A stretch of DNA of 62,957 nucleotides, taken from Candidatus Saccharimonadota bacterium. GTDB taxonomy: Bacteria > Patescibacteriota > Saccharimonadia > Saccharimonadales > SZUA-47. Below are positions 4,306-59,802 of the stretch, one piece after another. Below the pieces are notes generated by a model, which had not been told where the DNA came from, did not search any database, and worked only from the letters and a program-made list of their open reading frames with translations. The stretch spans positions 1-62,957 of the forward strand of contig JAGQMY010000006.1 in the NCBI GenBank assembly GCA_020428465.1, written 5' to 3'. Positions within the stretch are counted from its first letter, which is position 1, and every line of letters starts with the position of its first letter. A program made the translations under genes and the position numbers.

Positions 4306-4349
4306 ACTTAACTACTAGTATCTAATATTTCCTACACACATATCCAGCG

Positions 4350-5228
4350 TTAGCGTTTTATTTTATTCTTTTGACATACTGGACAATAGTGCGTTCCTCG
4401 TCCTGCTACCCTTGTTTTTTTTATAATTGCGCTACACCTAGGACACAATTTTCCCTCTCGCCTAAACACTTTAGCAAATTGCAAATAGCTCCCCTTTTTG
4501 CCCTCAGCATCAACATAATTTTTGTCAGTACTTCCACCTTTTTCGATGGAAAGCTTTAATACGAATAACATTTCATCATATAGCGTTTCTAGCCGTGATT
4601 TATTAATCGATTTAACTAACTCGCCAGGAAATATTTTTGCGCCCCACAAACTTTCGTCCGCATAAATATTTCCAACACCAGCTAAGATAGTTTGGTCGAG
4701 CAAAACAGCTTTGATAGTAGTGTTTTGTCTTTTATGAATTCGGGCTAAAAACTCAGTTTTAGTAAAGTTCTTACTAAGTGGTTCAGGGCCTAATTTTTTT
4801 ATGAATTCATGATTATTTACTTGAGATGTCGGGATTAACTTGACCCATCCGAACTTTCTTTGATCATTGAAGAATAATTTTGAACCATCAGAAAAACTAA
4901 AAATAACTCTTGTCGATTTATCAGGTAGACTACCAACAAGCGAATTGTTTGGGTGACCTGCTCCAAAATTTTGTTCACCACGATACACTAGTTGCCCAGT
5001 CATCTTTAGGTGAATAATAAATGAGTATTCACTATTGAGGCCCAGTATCAGTGCCTTACCTCTCCGTTCGACATTTACTATCTCTGCACCAACAACGAAA
5101 TTATCTACGTCATTTGGATTATTAGGAAAACTTTTCAGCCAATCATGATCAATTGATTTTATTAACTTACCTACAATTAATCCATTAAGGCCTCGTTTAA
5201 CTGTTTCGACTTCTGGTAGTTCTGGCAT
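4350..5228 (-). CDS. mutM: formamidopyrimidine-DNA glycosylase
   Basis: N-terminal MPELPEVE (catalytic Pro2/Glu3) and a C-terminal CPRC-x16-CPVC zinc finger. Confidence 0.9.
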   Translation of the reverse strand: MPELPEVETVKRGLNGLIVGKLIKSIDHDWLKSFPNNPNDVDNFVVGAEIVNVERRGKALILGLNSEYSFIIHLKMTGQLVYRGEQNFGAGHPNNSLVGSLPDKSTRVIFSFSDGSKLFFNDQRKFGWVKLIPTSQVNNHEFIKKLGPEPLSKNFTKTEFLARIHKRQNTTIKAVLLDQTILAGVGNIYADESLWGAKIFPGELVKSINKSRLETLYDEMLFVLKLSIEKGGSTDKNYVDAEGKKGSYLQFAKVFRREGKLCPRCSAIIKKTRVAGRGTHYCPVCQKNKIKR

Positions 5229-5250
5229 ATAATAAGTTTACATTTTTATC

Positions 5251-5493
5251 ATGGACTCATTAAAGGATATATTCACTAATTCGAAATCAGCCTCTGAGCC
5301 ACCTCAATTATCTGCACTCAAAAAATATTTAAACGAAAAATATAATGATAAATTTATTGTTGGTGTGAGCAAGGATCGATATTCTGTTATTGCACCAAAT
5401 TCCAGCTTAGCTGGATTAGTTCGTATGCACCAAAATCAAATAGTCAAGGAATGTAACCTAGACAAAGAATTAGTTATCACCATTCGACATTAA
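5251..5493 (+). CDS. small hypothetical protein, possibly DUF721/DciA-like
   Basis: 80 aa. The pattern VGVSKDRYSVIAPNSSLAGLVRMHQNQIVKECN resembles the DUF721 core. Weak assignment. Confidence 0.3.
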   Translation: MDSLKDIFTNSKSASEPPQLSALKKYLNEKYNDKFIVGVSKDRYSVIAPNSSLAGLVRMHQNQIVKECNLDKELVITIRH

Positions 5494-6060
5494 CATCGGT
5501 TCAATTTCTTTGATAAATTGCTCAAAAGATTCATACTTAATAGCACTCATGCCGGCATCAATAGCACCCGTAACGTTTTTCTCCAGGTCGTCTATGAATA
5601 CACATTCACTAGCATCAACACCGAGTCTATCCGCAGATAGCTTATAGATTCTTTCATCAGGTTTTACTAGACCAACATCACTGCTAAGAACTATATCGTC
5701 GAAATAGTCGCTAGCAGGTCTTTCTACGAACATTCTTTCAATAAACCCATGACCCACATTTGATATCATGCCTATTTTGTATTTATTTTTATGATTATCT
5801 ATAAAATCTAGAATTCGTCCATCTAAACCGCTAAATTGTTTGAGCCTGCTATAAACCTCTTCTTTTGTAACTCCTACAATTTGTGCAAATTCACCCCATA
5901 GCTCATCGCGTGTTATCAGTCCAAGGTCGACTTTTTTTACTAAATTATGAAGCTCGTCTCTGTATTCGTTAATTCTCTGACCTAAATACTCATCAGCCAT
6001 CAACCAGTAAGTATCTGGATATAGCACTCCAAAGCAGTCGAAAATTATGGCCTTAATCAT
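5470..6060 (-). CDS. HAD-superfamily hydrolase
   Basis: Motif I IIFDCFGV, motif III/IV region CVFIDDLEKNVTGA. Paralogue of 8074-8655. Confidence 0.8.
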   Translation of the reverse strand: MIKAIIFDCFGVLYPDTYWLMADEYLGQRINEYRDELHNLVKKVDLGLITRDELWGEFAQIVGVTKEEVYSRLKQFSGLDGRILDFIDNHKNKYKIGMISNVGHGFIERMFVERPASDYFDDIVLSSDVGLVKPDERIYKLSADRLGVDASECVFIDDLEKNVTGAIDAGMSAIKYESFEQFIKEIEPMLMSNGDN

Positions 6061-6112
6061 ACTAATAGTCTATCAGAGAGTTAGTTACTGAATTATGAAG
6101 TTGCTCTTTTTT

Positions 6113-6712
6113 TTAGAGAGTTAGGCCTGTGTTTTTGACCAATTCGTCAAAATCTGGAACTTGCTTAGCAAACAGAACTCGCATCGTAGTCATCATACCT
6201 GCTGCTGTACCATCAGCCCTGTCACAAGAATCTGTCCAACGTCTCTCATTGTCTCCGACTTCTAGAATGTAGCGTTTTCCTCGAGGACATGATCCTTCGT
6301 CCATATAATCATCATCCGAAGTTGTGCCCGCATATCTATCTAGTGCCTTTGCCTTCTCGAGAGATTTTATAAAATTGTCGTATGATTGTACGTTATTTAC
6401 ATATGATTTTTCTGCTACTACCTTCAGTCCGTAGTCTGAAAATACTTTCATCTTGACAGTTTGGGCTGTAACTTCGATAGCGTAGCTACGATGTTCAGAA
6501 CTGGCCACAATAGGACCATCAACAATATATCGAACAACTTTAACATCATCTAAATTAGTTGTGTTTTCCTCGATATTAACTGTGGTAGGCGTATCTGATT
6601 TTTTGTTAAATACAGAACGAGCGATTGAGCTTAATCCCCAACCTACAAAAACCAAAACAACCAATAATAATAGAGTGGCTATAATCCATTTGAGCTTTGA
6701 ACCAAATCCCAT
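6113..6712 (-). CDS. hypothetical membrane-anchored protein
   Basis: Single N-terminal TM helix (WIIATLLLLVVLVFVGWGL). No recognisable domain. Confidence 0.5.
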   Translation of the reverse strand: MGFGSKLKWIIATLLLLVVLVFVGWGLSSIARSVFNKKSDTPTTVNIEENTTNLDDVKVVRYIVDGPIVASSEHRSYAIEVTAQTVKMKVFSDYGLKVVAEKSYVNNVQSYDNFIKSLEKAKALDRYAGTTSDDDYMDEGSCPRGKRYILEVGDNERRWTDSCDRADGTAAGMMTTMRVLFAKQVPDFDELVKNTGLTL

Positions 6713-6752
6713 AATGCTTATATTATATCACCAGTTAAACATAATTGCAATA

Positions 6753-7154
6753 CTATTGTAGTATTTCAGACACTATCCGTCTTATTTCGTCATTTATGCC
6801 GACTTCTGGGATATCCTCGAGCTTATTTACCCATATATATTCACTGTGTTCGTTGCTAAGCGCAACTTTTGATGGCACCTTGGCCTCAACTCTAAAAAAT
6901 ATTAATATCAAGCCTGTATTTTCTGCTACATCTACTGGTACCCTGTACGAACCAAGCATATCACCGATAGAAATTACTTTAGTTTCAGGTAATTCTTCAC
7001 TTATTTCCCGCCTCAAAGCACCCTCGAAAGATTCATCGCCATCAATCCTGCCACCAGGAACGTCAATTATTCGCGGATCTTTCAGTAATAAAACACCTCT
7101 TTCGGGGTCATTTATTATCGCCTTAACTCCTACATAAAATTTTTTCATTGCCAT
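6753..7154 (-). CDS. NUDIX hydrolase
   Basis: Nudix box GGRIDGDESFEGALRREISEELP. Confidence 0.8.
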   Translation of the reverse strand: MAMKKFYVGVKAIINDPERGVLLLKDPRIIDVPGGRIDGDESFEGALRREISEELPETKVISIGDMLGSYRVPVDVAENTGLILIFFRVEAKVPSKVALSNEHSEYIWVNKLEDIPEVGINDEIRRIVSEILQ

Positions 7155-7174
7155 ACGGCAAGTATATCAGTAAC

Positions 7175-32612: not shown

Positions 32613-33799
32613 TTCAAATACTCCTTCTTAACTTTCATATATTCATCCCTAAACGAACCGCCGGCAGCCACCGAATTATTAACTTTTTCAGTCGCATGTA
32701 GTTCAGGCGTCATCGCCTTGTCCAAGGATTTTTTATTAACTTCTAAATTTTCAACTACCTTTTCCCAGATATTCAAGACATCTTCTACCAACTGTATGGC
32801 CTCTATTAACGGCTTTTTAGCTAGCTGTAAATCTCGCTGGTAGCCGCTGGTTTTTTTCTCAATTATTCCGTGGATTTGCTCGACATATCCCCAATAAATT
32901 GACTCTTTGCCCCGCATAATTTCCAGCACGTCGTAGTTATGTTTTTGTGGCATAATCGACGATCCGGTAGTAAACGAAACCGGCAGCGAAAAGAAATTGA
33001 ATTCAACTGTTGTATACAGCAGCAGGTCACTGGCGAAACTGCTAGCCAGCAATACTAGGGGTTCCAGATTTTGCAGCAAGATTATTTCAAAATATCCTCT
33101 GCTTAGGCCTGCATACATGGGATTTTGCTGAACTTCCGAAAAGTTCAGTTTTTTAGCCGTAAATTCTTTGTTCGGCTGCAGTTTCTGACCGTCAAATCCG
33201 AATCCGGCTCCCGAACCGAGCGGGTTCTGGTCCAGGATATGCTTCGTAGCCTCTTGCAGAATCAACGAATCCTCTAAGGCATCAAGATACGATCCCAGCC
33301 ATGCTCCAACTGTTGTCGGCATAGCTTTTTGCATATGCGTGTAGCCGGGCATTTTTTGCGATTTATGTATCTTCGACTGTTCTGCCAAGGCTTCGATTAC
33401 GCTAGCTGTTTTGGTAGTCATTAGTTCCAATTTTTGTTGCATGAATAATCTAATCATCGTTAGCGATTGATCATTTCTACTCCTTAAAAAATGAATTTTT
33501 CTAGCTAACTTGTTGCATGATTTATGCAATTCGAACTCAATGAAACTATGTCCGTCCTCGTACTTTTCTGGAATTTTAAATCCTTTTTTGCTCACTATTT
33601 TTGATAGCTCATTCAGTCCATTTTCTATATCGGCAAGTTCATTTTTGCTTAACAAATTCAAACTTGCAAGCATCTGCACATGCGCAAGCGTGGCTTTGAT
33701 ATCATGCGGTAGCAGTTTGGTATCTACTGCTAAATCATCACCGACACAAAACTTCTCTAATTCTTTATCCGGGGTTATATCACCCCATAGTTTATTCAT
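32609..33799 (-). CDS. argH: argininosuccinate lyase (short form)
   Basis: Fumarate-lyase signature GSSIMPQKHNYDVLE. ATG at 33799 with a GGAGG SD. The ORF-track GTG at 33808 lies inside that SD. Confidence 0.9.
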   Translation of the reverse strand: MNKLWGDITPDKELEKFCVGDDLAVDTKLLPHDIKATLAHVQMLASLNLLSKNELADIENGLNELSKIVSKKGFKIPEKYEDGHSFIEFELHKSCNKLARKIHFLRSRNDQSLTMIRLFMQQKLELMTTKTASVIEALAEQSKIHKSQKMPGYTHMQKAMPTTVGAWLGSYLDALEDSLILQEATKHILDQNPLGSGAGFGFDGQKLQPNKEFTAKKLNFSEVQQNPMYAGLSRGYFEIILLQNLEPLVLLASSFASDLLLYTTVEFNFFSLPVSFTTGSSIMPQKHNYDVLEIMRGKESIYWGYVEQIHGIIEKKTSGYQRDLQLAKKPLIEAIQLVEDVLNIWEKVVENLEVNKKSLDKAMTPELHATEKVNNSVAAGGSFRDEYMKVKKEYLK

Positions 33800-33845: not shown

Positions 33846-33885
33846 AAAAATTAAAATCGCCCTCGTAATTCATTAACGAGAGCGA
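33846..33885 (-). terminator. intrinsic terminator inside the argH leader (attenuator segments 3:4)
   Basis: RNA reads UCGCUCUCGU, 9-nt loop, ACGAGGGCGA (10 bp), followed by UUUUAAUUUUU. Confidence 0.65.
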
Positions 33886-33906
33886 CGATGAAGGCGAATT
33901 AATTAT

Positions 33907-33981
33907 TTAAATATTACAAGCACCGCTCTCGAAAATACGAGTGCGGCGTACTGAATTAAACTTGTAATTTATGTTAAACAT
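33907..33981 (-). CDS. candidate 24-codon leader peptide MFNINYKFNSVRRTRIFESGACNI
   Basis: ATG lies 7 nt after a -10 box. Codons 12, 13 and 15 are CGC CGC CGU and form the 5' strand of the first leader hairpin. Confidence 0.45.
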   Translation of the reverse strand: MFNINYKFNSVRRTRIFESGACNI

Positions 33982-33988
33982 AAATACT

Positions 33989-34016
33989 ATATTATCACGA
34001 ATCTAATCTTTGTCAA
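33989..34016 (-). promoter_or_regulatory. sigma-70-type promoter of the arg operon leader
   Basis: On the minus strand: TTGACA (34016-34011), 16-nt spacer, TAATAT (33994-33989). Confidence 0.55.
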
Positions 34017-34025
34017 ATTATTGTT

Positions 34026-34053
34026 TTGAAACCCGTTTTCTCTACTGTAAAAT
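34026..34053 (+). promoter_or_regulatory. sigma-70-type promoter placed for a leaderless mRNA of the 34060 gene
   Basis: TTGAAA, 16-nt spacer, TAAAAT, then 6 nt to the ATG at 34060. Confidence 0.45.
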
Positions 34054-34059
34054 AAGCTC

Positions 34060-34710
34060 ATGAATGATCCAATTGAAAATATTGTCAACGGTGTGCGAGT
34101 CATGATGAGTCGTCTTGCTCATATACTAAATGTCATTTTTAAAGGTAAGCTTAAACCCTCACATATTACATTATTTTCTCTGCTCGGTCATATTCCGGCT
34201 GCTTGGGCTCTTTGGCAGGGACGAACTGTACTGGCTTGCATTTTTATTGCCGTTTTCGGGCTTATGGATGCTCTTGACGGTGCACTTGCCCGCGAGCAAA
34301 AGTCACCTAGCAAATTTGGGATGTTTTTTGATGCCGTGACTGATCGAATCAAAGAAATAATTCTTTATTCAGGATTAGGAGTTTATGCTTTCAGATTTGA
34401 ACCTCGAGTTGCTGCTTGGGTAATTCCTGCGCTAGCCGGAACAAGTATTTTGGTCAGTTTTGTTAAGGCTAAAGGCGAAATGGCGATCGCTGAGTCTACT
34501 AATGATAGACAGACGCTAAATCGCACTTTCTCTAGTGGTTTTGCTCGATATGAAATACGAATGAGCTTATTGATAATAGGTTTGTTATCCAACTACTTTG
34601 CTTCAATCCTAAATTTGATTATCGCCTTAAATCTAATAACTGCCTCTGAGAGATTTAGCGAAATTGCCAAACAGCTAAATAAAGAAGATTCAAAAAATCG
34701 AAGCAAATAA
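34060..34710 (+). CDS. CDP-alcohol phosphatidyltransferase family protein
   Basis: Signature D-x2-DG-x2-AR...G-x3-D-x3-D, seen as MDALDGALAR..FGMFFDAVTDRIKE. Multi-TM. Confidence 0.8.
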   Translation: MNDPIENIVNGVRVMMSRLAHILNVIFKGKLKPSHITLFSLLGHIPAAWALWQGRTVLACIFIAVFGLMDALDGALAREQKSPSKFGMFFDAVTDRIKEIILYSGLGVYAFRFEPRVAAWVIPALAGTSILVSFVKAKGEMAIAESTNDRQTLNRTFSSGFARYEIRMSLLIIGLLSNYFASILNLIIALNLITASERFSEIAKQLNKEDSKNRSK

Positions 34711-34713
34711 TTA

Positions 34714-35367
34714 ATGATAAAGACTGACTTTCATACTCATTCTATTGCTTCACCGGACGGAAGTATAACCAGTGAGCAGTACAAAAATTTAATAAATTCC
34801 GGCGTAATTGACTGTGTTGCCGTCACTGATCATAACCGCATCGATTTTGCTCTAAAATTACAAAACGATCTCGGAGCTGAAAAAGTAATCGTCGGCGAAG
34901 AAATTGAAACAACTGAAGGTGAAATTATCGGCTTATTTTTAACCGAAAAAATAGCTCCCTATCTAAGCCCAGAAAAAACTATTGAAGCCATAAAGGCTCA
35001 GAACGGAATTGTCTACATCCCCCACCCTTTTGAAACTGTTCGCAAGGGTATTAGTCGTGAAACATTAAATCGCATAAAAAGTAACGTCGATATAATTGAA
35101 AGCGCCAATGGTCGAGCTTTTTTCCAAAATTTTGGGCCGGAATCTCACGCTTGGTCACACATCAACAGAGTCGCTTCCTTTGCATCGAGTGACGCTCATC
35201 GCAGTAAAGCATTATGTAAAACATATACAGATCTTGCGGAGTATCCAAATCGCAAAAATATACTCGAACTCTGTGCAACCGCACGCAAGCACTACTCACG
35301 CCCAAGCTTGCTTGATATACTAGCACCAAAGCTTAACCGTATACGTAAAGCTTTAAATTTATTATGA
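34714..35367 (+). CDS. PHP-domain metal-dependent phosphoesterase
   Basis: N-terminal DFHTHSIASPDG, later VTDHN and IPHPF motifs typical of the PHP fold. Confidence 0.8.
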   Translation: MIKTDFHTHSIASPDGSITSEQYKNLINSGVIDCVAVTDHNRIDFALKLQNDLGAEKVIVGEEIETTEGEIIGLFLTEKIAPYLSPEKTIEAIKAQNGIVYIPHPFETVRKGISRETLNRIKSNVDIIESANGRAFFQNFGPESHAWSHINRVASFASSDAHRSKALCKTYTDLAEYPNRKNILELCATARKHYSRPSLLDILAPKLNRIRKALNLL

Positions 35368-35918
35368 AAGATATACTATCAATTATTTGGATATTCCTGC
35401 CCGCCGGCATAGCGAATATGAGTCCTGTCATCGCCAATAACATCCCAGTACTTAGAAATTTAAAAACACCCCTAGATTTTGGTAAAACTTTCCGAGGTAA
35501 AAGGATTTTTGGCGATCATAAAACTTTTCGTGGGTTATTCGCCGGTATAATTGTTGGTTTATTGGTAGCGGGGCTACAAATGCTCCTTGCAAAGTTATTT
35601 AGTTGGCCTAAGGATTTATCGTTAAGTCTAGATTATTCTTCCCCGGTAATTTTAATTATGGGCATGGCATTGGGGTTCGGAGCATTAGCTGGAGATGCAA
35701 TAAAAAGCTTTTTTAAGCGCCAGATTAATATAGAGCCAGGTAAGCCCTGGGTACCTTTTGATCAACTAGACTTTTTGCTTGGAGCAATATTGGTAAGTCT
35801 ATTATTTTTCCAATTACCTATAAGGTTATACGTGATAGGACTCCTAATAGGGCTTTTCCTACATCCGACCGTGAATATTATCGCTTGGCTTATGCGACTA
35901 CAGGATAAGCCGTTTTAA
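35364..35918 (+). CDS. CDP-archaeol synthase (CarS/DUF46)-like membrane cytidylyltransferase
   Basis: PAGIANMSPV..PLDFGKTFRGKRIFGDHKTFRG..GDAIKSFFKR matches my recollection of the CarS family consensus. ATGA overlap with the PHP gene. Confidence 0.55.
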   Translation: MKDILSIIWIFLPAGIANMSPVIANNIPVLRNLKTPLDFGKTFRGKRIFGDHKTFRGLFAGIIVGLLVAGLQMLLAKLFSWPKDLSLSLDYSSPVILIMGMALGFGALAGDAIKSFFKRQINIEPGKPWVPFDQLDFLLGAILVSLLFFQLPIRLYVIGLLIGLFLHPTVNIIAWLMRLQDKPF

Positions 35919-59218: not shown

Positions 59219-59264
59219 AAGTATTCCTTTTTGTTACTAGTTATATATTATCACTATAGAAAAA

Positions 59265-59318
59265 TCCTCCATAGCTCCGTAAATACGGAGCGACAGAGGA
59301 TGGCGGAGAGGGGGAGAT
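59265..59318 (-). repeat. displaced tRNA-Ser(CGA) 3'-end copy (18 nt) with its conserved terminator hairpin
   Basis: 59301-59318 (tggcggagagggggagat) is identical to 59454-59471. The hairpin at 59265-59300 is the reverse complement of 60001-60035 with 2 substitutions and 1 indel. Confidence 0.8.

Positions 59319-59725: not shown

Positions 59726-59802
<77 letters not shown>

Follow-up and report, generated by a model that had tools for sequence, protein, structure and literature searches.

Leader-peptide attenuation is a well-known principle of amino acid gene control (PMC1183508), and attenuators placed ahead of aminoacyl-tRNA synthetase genes have been mentioned as well (PMC1262725). The classical attenuators (trp, his, thr, leu, pheA and ilv, together with pheST and, in some bacteria, trpS or leuS) have clustered cognate codons in a short open reading frame (ORF), alternative 1:2, 2:3 and 3:4 pairings and an intrinsic terminator preceding the first of the structural genes, and they control both biosynthetic genes and aminoacyl-tRNA synthetases. 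All of these features were shared by a leader that we analysed upstream of argH-argG-argS in 63 kb of one genome, contig JAGQMY010000006.1 of a Candidatus Saccharimonadota bacterium (this whole stretch of 62,957 nucleotides (nt) is called the window below, and coordinates refer to its minus strand unless marked (+)). It was likely, judging from its sequence and its relatives, that the leader is a ribosome-mediated (leader-peptide) transcription attenuator that is specific for arginine and controls argH-argG-argS. In comparison to the classical attenuators, the leader would sense arginine, it had no sequence or Rfam relationship to their families, and its ORF lacked a Shine-Dalgarno (SD) sequence and abutted the promoter. 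Furthermore, the stop codon of trpL is located between segments 1 and 2, whereas that of the arginine leader was located after segment 2, with the exception of one relative (L017). The element can be regarded as an arginine-specific, apparently leaderless variant of the well-known trp/his-type attenuation.

The arg genes are classically under ArgR repression, and T-boxes serve in some Firmicutes. Arg T-box leaders, and ArgR/AhrC acting at ARG boxes, do the same job as the one proposed here, namely tying arg biosynthesis and argS to the status of arginine or Arg-tRNA, whereas the proposed model of the arginine leader needs no protein or tRNA partner. In fungi, the arginine attenuator peptide (the arg-2/CPA1 upstream ORF) is a conserved nascent peptide that stalls the ribosome at high arginine and blocks scanning. 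It resembles the arginine leader in that an upstream ORF ties the arginine level to an arginine-pathway gene via stalling. However, the peptide of the arginine leader was not conserved beyond RNA constraints, and stalling would be expected at low Arg-tRNA.

The leaderless poly-Cys ORFs of mycobacteria (bioRxiv 10.1101/834739) are likewise sensory first cistrons with stalling at cognate codons that serve several operons (a 'ribulon'), and their RNA duplex hiding the ribosome-binding site resembles the anti-SD:SD pairing described below. Nevertheless, the mycobacterial system controls translation and does so by exposing the ribosome-binding site, whereas the core of the arginine leader was a covarying terminator/antiterminator; the amino acid and the phylum are different as well. 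Arginine supply is also sensed by the upstream ORFs Salmonella speF orf34 (PMC6386406) and S. aureus rbfL (PMC13009471), in which a ribosome pause on at least two Arg codons reshapes the downstream mRNA, as would happen in the arginine leader. These two ORFs act on ornithine decarboxylase and on a biofilm regulator rather than on arginine synthesis, they work through RNase G sensitivity, Rho termination or occlusion of the ribosome-binding site rather than through an intrinsic terminator, and the rbfL codons are the rare AGA/AGG, in contrast to the essentially CGY codons of the arginine leader. A 2005 survey of Actinobacteria reported no RNA element for arginine and cited T-boxes for this amino acid in other species (PMC1262725). 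We found no description of an arginine leader-peptide transcription attenuator, or of any such attenuator in candidate phyla radiation (CPR) bacteria, in literature that covered subscription journals thinly, and an earlier account is possible (for example, in Russian comparative-genomics work on attenuation).

Promoter, leader ORF and alternative hairpins in the window

An earlier sequence-only reading of the window had proposed a trp/his-type attenuator for the arginine genes and argS, and its description of the promoter, the ORF and the codons was borne out on reading the minus strand. The -35 hexamer TTGACA (34016-34011) and the -10 hexamer TAATAT (33994-33989) were separated by a 16-nt spacer ending in TG and were located 7 nt before the ATG of a 24-codon ORF encoding MFNINYKFNSVRRTRIFESGACNI (33981-33907, including the stop codon at 33909-33907). 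This pair was the sole 10-of-12 promoter match on the minus strand of the 78-nt divergent intergenic region, and that strand's best; the same 78-nt gap separated the leader from a divergent CDP-alcohol phosphatidyltransferase gene starting at 34060 (+). Three Arg codons were present inside four codons of the leader ORF, CGC CGC (ACU) CGU at 33948-33937 (CGC 33948-33946, CGC 33945-33943 and CGU 33939-33937), and, as had been claimed, they made up segment 1.

Segment 1 (CGCCGCACUCG, 33948-33938) was the 5' arm of the 1:2 hairpin and paired with segment 2 (CGAGAGCGGUG, 33931-33921) exactly where predicted, with one A.A mismatch. An outer helix formed by AUUACAAGU and GCUUGUAAU lengthened this hairpin in the minimum-free-energy fold. 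Segment 2 was also complementary to segment 3 (CGUCGCUCUCG), which would act both as its partner in the antiterminator and as the 5' arm of the terminator. The 11 base pairs (bp) of this duplex, two of them G-U, agreed with the sequence-only reading, while its position was 33887-33877, so that the proposed 33885-33876 was off by 1-2 nt. The proposed terminator was also found as a hairpin with a U-run, except that its stem was 11 bp long and not 10: GUCGCUCUCGU (33886-33876) paired with segment 4, the 3' arm (ACGAGGGCGAU, 33866-33856), and the U-run UUUAAUUUUU followed at 33855-33846. A simple terminator scan did not report this hairpin, whose loop was longer than the 8-nt limit of the scan. 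From the end of the U-run there were 33 nt to the argH SD, and the leader stop codon began 12 nt beyond the last base of segment 2, as previously noted.

The minimum-free-energy fold of the 191-nt leader held 1:2 together with 3:4 at -57.4 kcal/mol (z = -5.2), and none of 200 dinucleotide shuffles was as stable. The 2:3 duplex reached -16.0 kcal/mol (z = -3.9), and again 0 of 200 shuffles equalled it. When the sub-regions were folded, the values were -21.3 kcal/mol for 1:2, -14.8 for 2:3 and -16.9 for 3:4.

A family of arginine leaders in relatives

Upstream of argH or argG, related loci had short ORFs that carried an RR(R)xSR motif and were followed by a terminator, and further leaders were obtained by degenerate pattern scans of genome contigs and metagenome contigs. 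Altogether, 31 distinct leaders, the one from the window and 30 others, shared the same design. Nearly all of them originated from genomes labelled Saccharibacteria, Saccharimonadales, Patescibacteria or Parcubacteria, and four from unlabelled metagenome contigs. The nine pattern matches in metagenomes included four chance matches in coding sequence and one (L205, the JGI contig Ga0116164_10055002) that was the window's own sequence. On this comparative evidence, the element represents a family and is not peculiar to the window genome.

A covariance model (R1) was built from 25 relatives with the window excluded. In the 63 kb, its sole significant match was the leader (33851-33960 (-), 45.7 bits, E 3.7e-9), the next match having an E of 0.05. 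Across 200 fetched loci, the leaders matched by R1 were all of Saccharibacteria or Patescibacteria type. The genome-contig scan had given mostly chance matches in high-GC genomes, and their rejection by R1 served as a specificity control: at E <= 0.001 there was no match among the pattern-fetched loci of unrelated high-GC genomes (searched in L101-L200). A separate R1 search took in the window and the ArgH loci L001-L080. Model matches at L028 and L054 were plain terminators and were rejected as leaders.

The weak R1 match in the window (59256-59307 (-), 16.5 bits, E 0.05) was a hairpin, GUCGCUCCGUAUUUACGGAGCUAU, with a U-rich tract behind it, and adjoined a tRNA-Ser. It resembled the 1:2 hairpin with its CGUAUUU loop and was probably a mere terminator. 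Separately, one Saccharibacteria contig from a metagenome-assembled genome (MAG), L003, carried a 4238-nt direct repeat in which the leader and its downstream genes were copied exactly (72-2935 and 4310-7173); the repeat had arisen either by tandem duplication or as an artefact of the assembly.

Covariation of both conformations

A MAFFT alignment that included the window (A1) misplaced the window's segment 3, and for this reason we used a window-free plain MAFFT alignment (A2) with R1, and a model-based alignment (A3) of all 31 distinct sequences. The 2:3 antiterminator in A3 was paired in 97.1% of cells, and seven of its ten pairs had changed on both sides (34 such cells). None of 500 shuffles reached this covariation, and slid controls were only 38-55% paired. 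The competing 1:2 and 3:4 helices together were 95.7% paired in A3, with changes on both sides in eight of 15 pairs and, again, 0 of 500 shuffles reaching the observed value. Taken separately, 1:2 was 92.6% paired (both sides changed in three of eight pairs) and 3:4 was 99.1% paired (five of seven pairs). Similar values were obtained from A2, without the window: 98.0% pairing for 2:3, with six of ten pairs changed on both sides, and 96.0% for 1:2 plus 3:4, with seven of 15. No shuffle out of 500 reached the values for either state, and slid controls were 37-54% paired.

Clades differed in segments 2 and 3 in a matched manner, for example …GCGAUG/CAUCGC…, …UUGUC/GACAG…, …CUGCC/GGCAG… and …CUAUC/GAUAG…. 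The window itself provided a triple compensation, with GAG in segment 2 in place of the GGG of relatives, U in segments 1 and 3, and A in segment 4. A GC-rich stem followed by a U-run was kept in all 31 leaders. The minimum-free-energy folds of single sequences held 1:2 plus 3:4 in some leaders and 2:3 in others, suggesting that the two states were close in energy. The alignment of relatives thus agreed with the sequence-only reading in that the run of Arg codons was kept and the helices covaried.

Arginine codons, stop codon and peptide

The short frame was open in all 31 leaders, and the place of the Arg codons relative to segment 1 was constant. Three Arg codons were found in 22 leaders and four in the remaining nine, always within 4-6 codons. 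The 102 leader Arg codons comprised 51 CGC, 50 CGT and a single CGA, with no AGA or AGG, whereas in the window's own genes CGY made up 28% of Arg codons and AGR 48%. The third base of the first Arg codon was outside every helix and yet was a pyrimidine (C or U) in all leaders, which points to selection on decoding. CGC and CGU were exactly the codons read by the tRNA-Arg(GCG) of the window, whose reported position at 59726 was confirmed (59726-59802 (+)).

Bacterial tRNA-Arg usually has the anticodon ACG, edited to ICG. Therefore, the presence of tRNA-Arg(GCG) in the window may mean that these organisms lack TadA-type editing. According to Elf and Ehrenberg, the sensitivity of an attenuator depends on the choice of the regulatory codon and on the low general usage of that codon (PMC1183508), and the use of a single synonymous codon class in the leaders fits this analysis. 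The combination of CGY codons with an unusual tRNA-Arg(GCG) would provide a test of the idea that attenuators choose the codon with the most starvation-sensitive tRNA (PMC1183508).

In 24 of the 31 leaders the stop codon began 8-11 nt past segment 2, so that a terminating ribosome would cover the 3' part of this segment. The N-terminal halves of the leader peptides differed between leaders. In L014 there was a frameshift after the Arg run, and in L017 a stop codon was located ahead of segment 2; all helices were retained in both cases. These observations indicated that the conserved entity is the RNA and not the peptide.

Genes downstream of the leaders

The leaders preceded same-strand arginine-related genes, namely argG, argH, argF, argJ, argB and argS as well as GNAT or deacylase genes, with 10-60 nt between the leader and the SD of the first gene. 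The argH-argG-argS order of the window was also present in L001, L002 and L153, and L012 had GNAT-argG-argH-argS. Longer biosynthetic clusters were argG-argH-argF-argJ-argB (L014, L022) and argH-argF with or without argJ-argB (L016, L023, L027). A GNAT gene was followed by argS in L107 and L115, and a GNAT gene, an AstE/AspA-like deacylase gene and, where the contig continued, argS were found in L085, L111 and L159. In L176 the leader preceded argJ, in L140 argS was the first long ORF about 320 nt downstream, and in L190 a gene for a 278-aa protein was followed by argS. This coherent arginine theme, as read from gene contexts, is independent functional evidence for the proposed role of the leaders.

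Small GNAT acetyltransferase genes were found behind the leaders of L003, L012, L019, L083 and L085. The AstE/AspA-family deacylase gene was located at 621-1436 after the leader in L085 and was also present in L111 and L159. The 278-aa protein (L190, 119-955 after the leader) had no Pfam or NCBIfam match. The GNAT, deacylase and 278-aa genes were candidates for missing arginine-metabolism steps in CPR bacteria.

Proposed mechanism and the points against it

At the sequence level, the attenuator elements were all present: a codon cluster, a terminator, an antiterminator, a 1:2 hairpin over the codons, and cognate genes. Together with the relatives, the covariation, the Arg codons and the gene contexts, they supported the trp/his-type interpretation that had been proposed for the arginine genes and argS. 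In the model, transcription would start at or within a few nt of the leader AUG, and the 24-codon ORF would be translated without an SD. With no ribosome, or with fast read-through, segment 2 would either be taken up by segment 1 or lie in part under the ribosome that has reached the stop codon; segments 3 and 4 would then form the terminator, and transcription would end at the U-run. When the charged tRNA-Arg that reads CGY is scarce, a ribosome would stall on CGC CGC (ACU) CGU and mask segment 1. Segment 2, now free, would pair with segment 3 once it is made, block the terminator and let the polymerase enter argH-argG-argS. Like the classical attenuators, the switch would be kinetic, and 2:3 would have to form ahead of the transcription of segment 4. 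A second, translational layer that involves the argH SD (see below) is likely as well.

Several observations weighed against this model. In the window the antiterminator (-14.8 kcal/mol) was weaker than the terminator (-16.9 kcal/mol), and the U-run UUUAAUUUUU was interrupted. When segment 1 was masked as by a ribosome footprint, the equilibrium fold of the window leader retained the terminator and contained no 2:3 helix. The model therefore requires kinetic control of the kind known from the trp attenuator, and the grounds for 2:3 are the covariation and the order in which the segments are synthesized. Most of the additional leaders were fetched by a pattern fixing segments 1 and 2; segments 3 and 4 are free of this bias, and so is the variable 3' half of segment 2. 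Since the sequences were related, independent events are fewer than the shuffle-based covariation statistics suggest. The promoter was a consensus match only, and such matches were no more frequent in the region than expected (3 found versus 3.2 expected). Moreover, the leader ATG had no SD, the upstream SD:anti-SD energy was around zero, and an SD-like purine run was seen in one leader only (L083). Translation of the ORF would thus depend on leaderless initiation, which for these organisms is a supposition.

Initiation of the leader ORF

The distance from the ATG to the conserved CGU was 39-45 nt in 30 of the 31 leaders. In most relatives there were 5-13 nt between the end of a -10-like hexamer and the ATG, and the hexamer was frequently preceded by a TTGNNN box at 16-18 nt; in L001 and L002 the -10-like box, read by eye, was TTTAAT. 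The structural genes downstream of the leaders carried clear SDs. The lack of an SD and the short distance between the -10 box and the ATG suggested that the leader ORF is probably translated as the 5'-terminal cistron of a leaderless or near-leaderless mRNA.

Similar starts were found elsewhere in the window. The divergent gene at 34060 (+) had no SD, and its promoter, TTGAAA-16-TAAAAT (within 34026-34062), ended 6 nt before the ATG. Five other starts, at 6712 (-), 15976 (+), 24640 (+), 49985 (+) and 54999 (-), likewise lacked an SD and had TTGNNN-16/18-TANNNT ending 6-10 nt before the ATG. Leaderless mRNAs may be common in this organism, and the arginine leaders would themselves provide indirect evidence for the translation of leaderless mRNAs in these bacteria.

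Alternative explanations

The first alternative was that control is mainly translational: a box in the leader would sequester the argH SD, ribosome stalling in the leader would relieve this, and the hairpin with the U-run would be a weak or constitutive terminator. The anti-SD-like box UCGCCUUC (33897-33890) was located immediately 5' of the terminator and, in the minimum-free-energy fold of the window leader, paired with the argH SD region GGAGGUGA (33812-33805) over 8 bp at -12.2 kcal/mol. The box varied in step with the first gene's SD among relatives (GUUCC/GGAAC, GCUCCA/UGGAG(C) and CCUUU(C)/(G)AAAGG). Cognate box-SD pairs were more stable than permuted ones, which matched them in 24 of 5000 and in 1 of 10000 permutations, and the mycobacterial poly-Cys ORFs offered a precedent (bioRxiv 10.1101/834739). 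On the other hand, the co-change rested on few independent changes and the pairing was weak or absent in several relatives, whereas the GC-rich stem and U-run were kept throughout the 31 leaders, and 2:3 overlapped exactly the 5' arm of the terminator and covaried with it. It was also possible for both layers to operate, since they are compatible with each other. As the main mode of control, translation had a slim chance of being the correct answer.

As an addition to the attenuator, a second, translational layer was likely, although the evidence for the pairing was suggestive only. In the terminator conformation the argH SD would be sequestered by the box, and transcripts that leak past the terminator would thereby be silenced. 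When the leader is antiterminated, the box would be inside the 2:3 loop, where SD pairing would need a pseudoknot.

A second possibility was that the same terminator/antiterminator switch is set by an RNA-binding protein, an uncharged tRNA or a small ligand, the short ORF being incidental. The missing SD ahead of the leader ATG agreed with this, and the helices alone would account for most of the sequence conservation. However, the ORF was open in every leader and its ATG was at a fixed distance, and the first two Arg codons were largely outside the helices and nevertheless invariant CGY CGY, with the unpaired third base always a pyrimidine. The element consisted of about 100 nt of simple hairpins and had no conserved core resembling a ligand pocket. 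A search of Rfam 15 at the gathering score gave only tRNAs and no leader family in the whole window and seven related loci. When the leader was searched at E <= 10, the best sub-threshold match was an unrelated small RNA with an E of 0.85, and neither a T-box nor a riboswitch was matched. ARG-box palindromes (TNTGAATWWWWATTCANW, up to three mismatches) were not enriched in the window (36 found versus 44 expected). At the locus, the promoter held no such site and the leader ORF a single one, with three mismatches; argR itself was not searched for. Overall, the chance that the switch works without the ribosome was about as slim.

The third alternative was a functional Cys-containing micropeptide (with a ...SRI.GSCPCN motif), in which case the hairpin would be merely its terminator and the Arg codons ordinary residues. 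The C-terminal half of the peptide was indeed alike in many relatives. This likeness, however, coincided with segments 1 and 2 and changed along with segments 3 and 4, and the N-terminal half was not conserved. In addition, the clade of the window had ...GSDAC.. or ..ESGACNI where others had GSCPC, the frame was shifted in L014, and in L017 it ended before segment 2. The element was always on the same strand as arginine genes and ahead of them, 10-60 nt before the SD. We considered a micropeptide very improbable.

Finally, AT-rich intergenic DNA often contains short ORFs and hairpins, and promoter-like sites were not enriched here, yet a chance combination of a short ORF with two similar hairpins was effectively excluded by the match of the window-free model (E 3.7e-9), the fold z-score of -5.2, the covariation, and the alignment of 31 leaders, in which the design was kept at 30 other distinct loci, all adjoining arginine genes.

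Analogous leaders and possible implications

Analogous short ORFs with RRR runs and a terminator 60-100 nt upstream of argG were found outside the Saccharibacteria. They included Marinimicrobia (e.g., MLNNRRNNRQNRRRSNHMEGHR; L034, L040, L045, L047, L052, L055 and L066, at about 1580-1730), Lentisphaeria (…NNRRRHP…; L065 and L071), the unclassified MAG L030 and the Paceibacteria MAG L026 (1618-1741). Similar leaders were present in the Gracilibacteria-type MAGs L025 (628-724) and L067 (2370-2475). In these leaders segment 1 was similar to segment 3 and segment 2 to segment 4, for example GGAGGG/CCCUCC replaced by GGGGGG/CCCCCC, and the sequences were unlike those of the Saccharibacteria family. 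The single-sequence antiterminator duplexes of Marinimicrobia and Lentisphaeria were not significant against shuffles (z from +0.8 to -2.9). We considered the leaders outside Saccharibacteria as analogous only.

A broader interpretation would be a widespread Arg-leader regulon in Saccharibacteria that has analogues in Gracilibacteria, Paceibacteria, Marinimicrobia and Lentisphaeria. Leaderless CGY ORFs would drive terminator/antiterminator switches before several operons of arg, argS, GNAT, deacylase and 278-aa genes, would act on both transcription and translation, and would replace ArgR-type repression in these reduced genomes. The chances that this whole scheme holds appeared to be about even.

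If the attenuator is real, arginine would join the amino acids sensed by leader-peptide attenuation, and the leader would be among the first cis-regulatory mechanisms defined for Patescibacteria (CPR). According to a recent perspective, the mechanisms behind the growth of Patescibacteria on host cells and behind their cell-cycle regulation 'remain virtually unknown', and the arginine deiminase pathway is essential in a Saccharibacterium (PMC11665869). The leader family would also flag genes beyond current annotation as arginine-related, namely those for the GNAT acetyltransferases, the AstE/AspA-type deacylase and the 278-aa protein. As a short self-contained switch, the leader could also be put to use in the genetics of Saccharibacteria, as a native part for controlling expression.

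The argH-argG-argS operon and neighbouring genes

The argH gene (33799-32609, ATG at 33799) was preceded by the SD GGAGGUG (33812-33806) and encoded a short argininosuccinate lyase of 396 aa that matched Pfam Lyase_1 and TIGR00838. Its score against TIGR00838 (argH) was 258 bits, slightly below the curated cut-off of 279.5, compared with 64 bits against purB. The argininosuccinate synthase gene argG (32612-31329) overlapped the argH stop codon with its start, and argS (31315-29654), encoding arginyl-tRNA synthetase, began 13 nt past argG; both had clear Pfam matches. Among GTDB representative genomes, ArgH had at most 55% identity to any protein and its best matches were from Saccharimonadales, while ArgS had 71% identity to the same Saccharimonadales MAG as the best ArgH matches. 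Short ArgH proteins (about 396 aa) at 40-48% identity were common to CPR bacteria, DPANN and other archaea, Francisella, Marinimicrobia and Lentisphaeria (loci L005-L011 and L029-L080). This patchy distribution suggests a horizontal spread of the argG-argH pair.

On the opposite strand, two genes downstream of the CDP-alcohol phosphatidyltransferase gene (34060-34710 (+)), a protein with a CarS-like CDP-archaeol synthase domain (PF01864, E 4e-38) was encoded at 35364-35918 (+), placing an archaeal-type lipid enzyme family inside a bacterial (CPR-like) genome.

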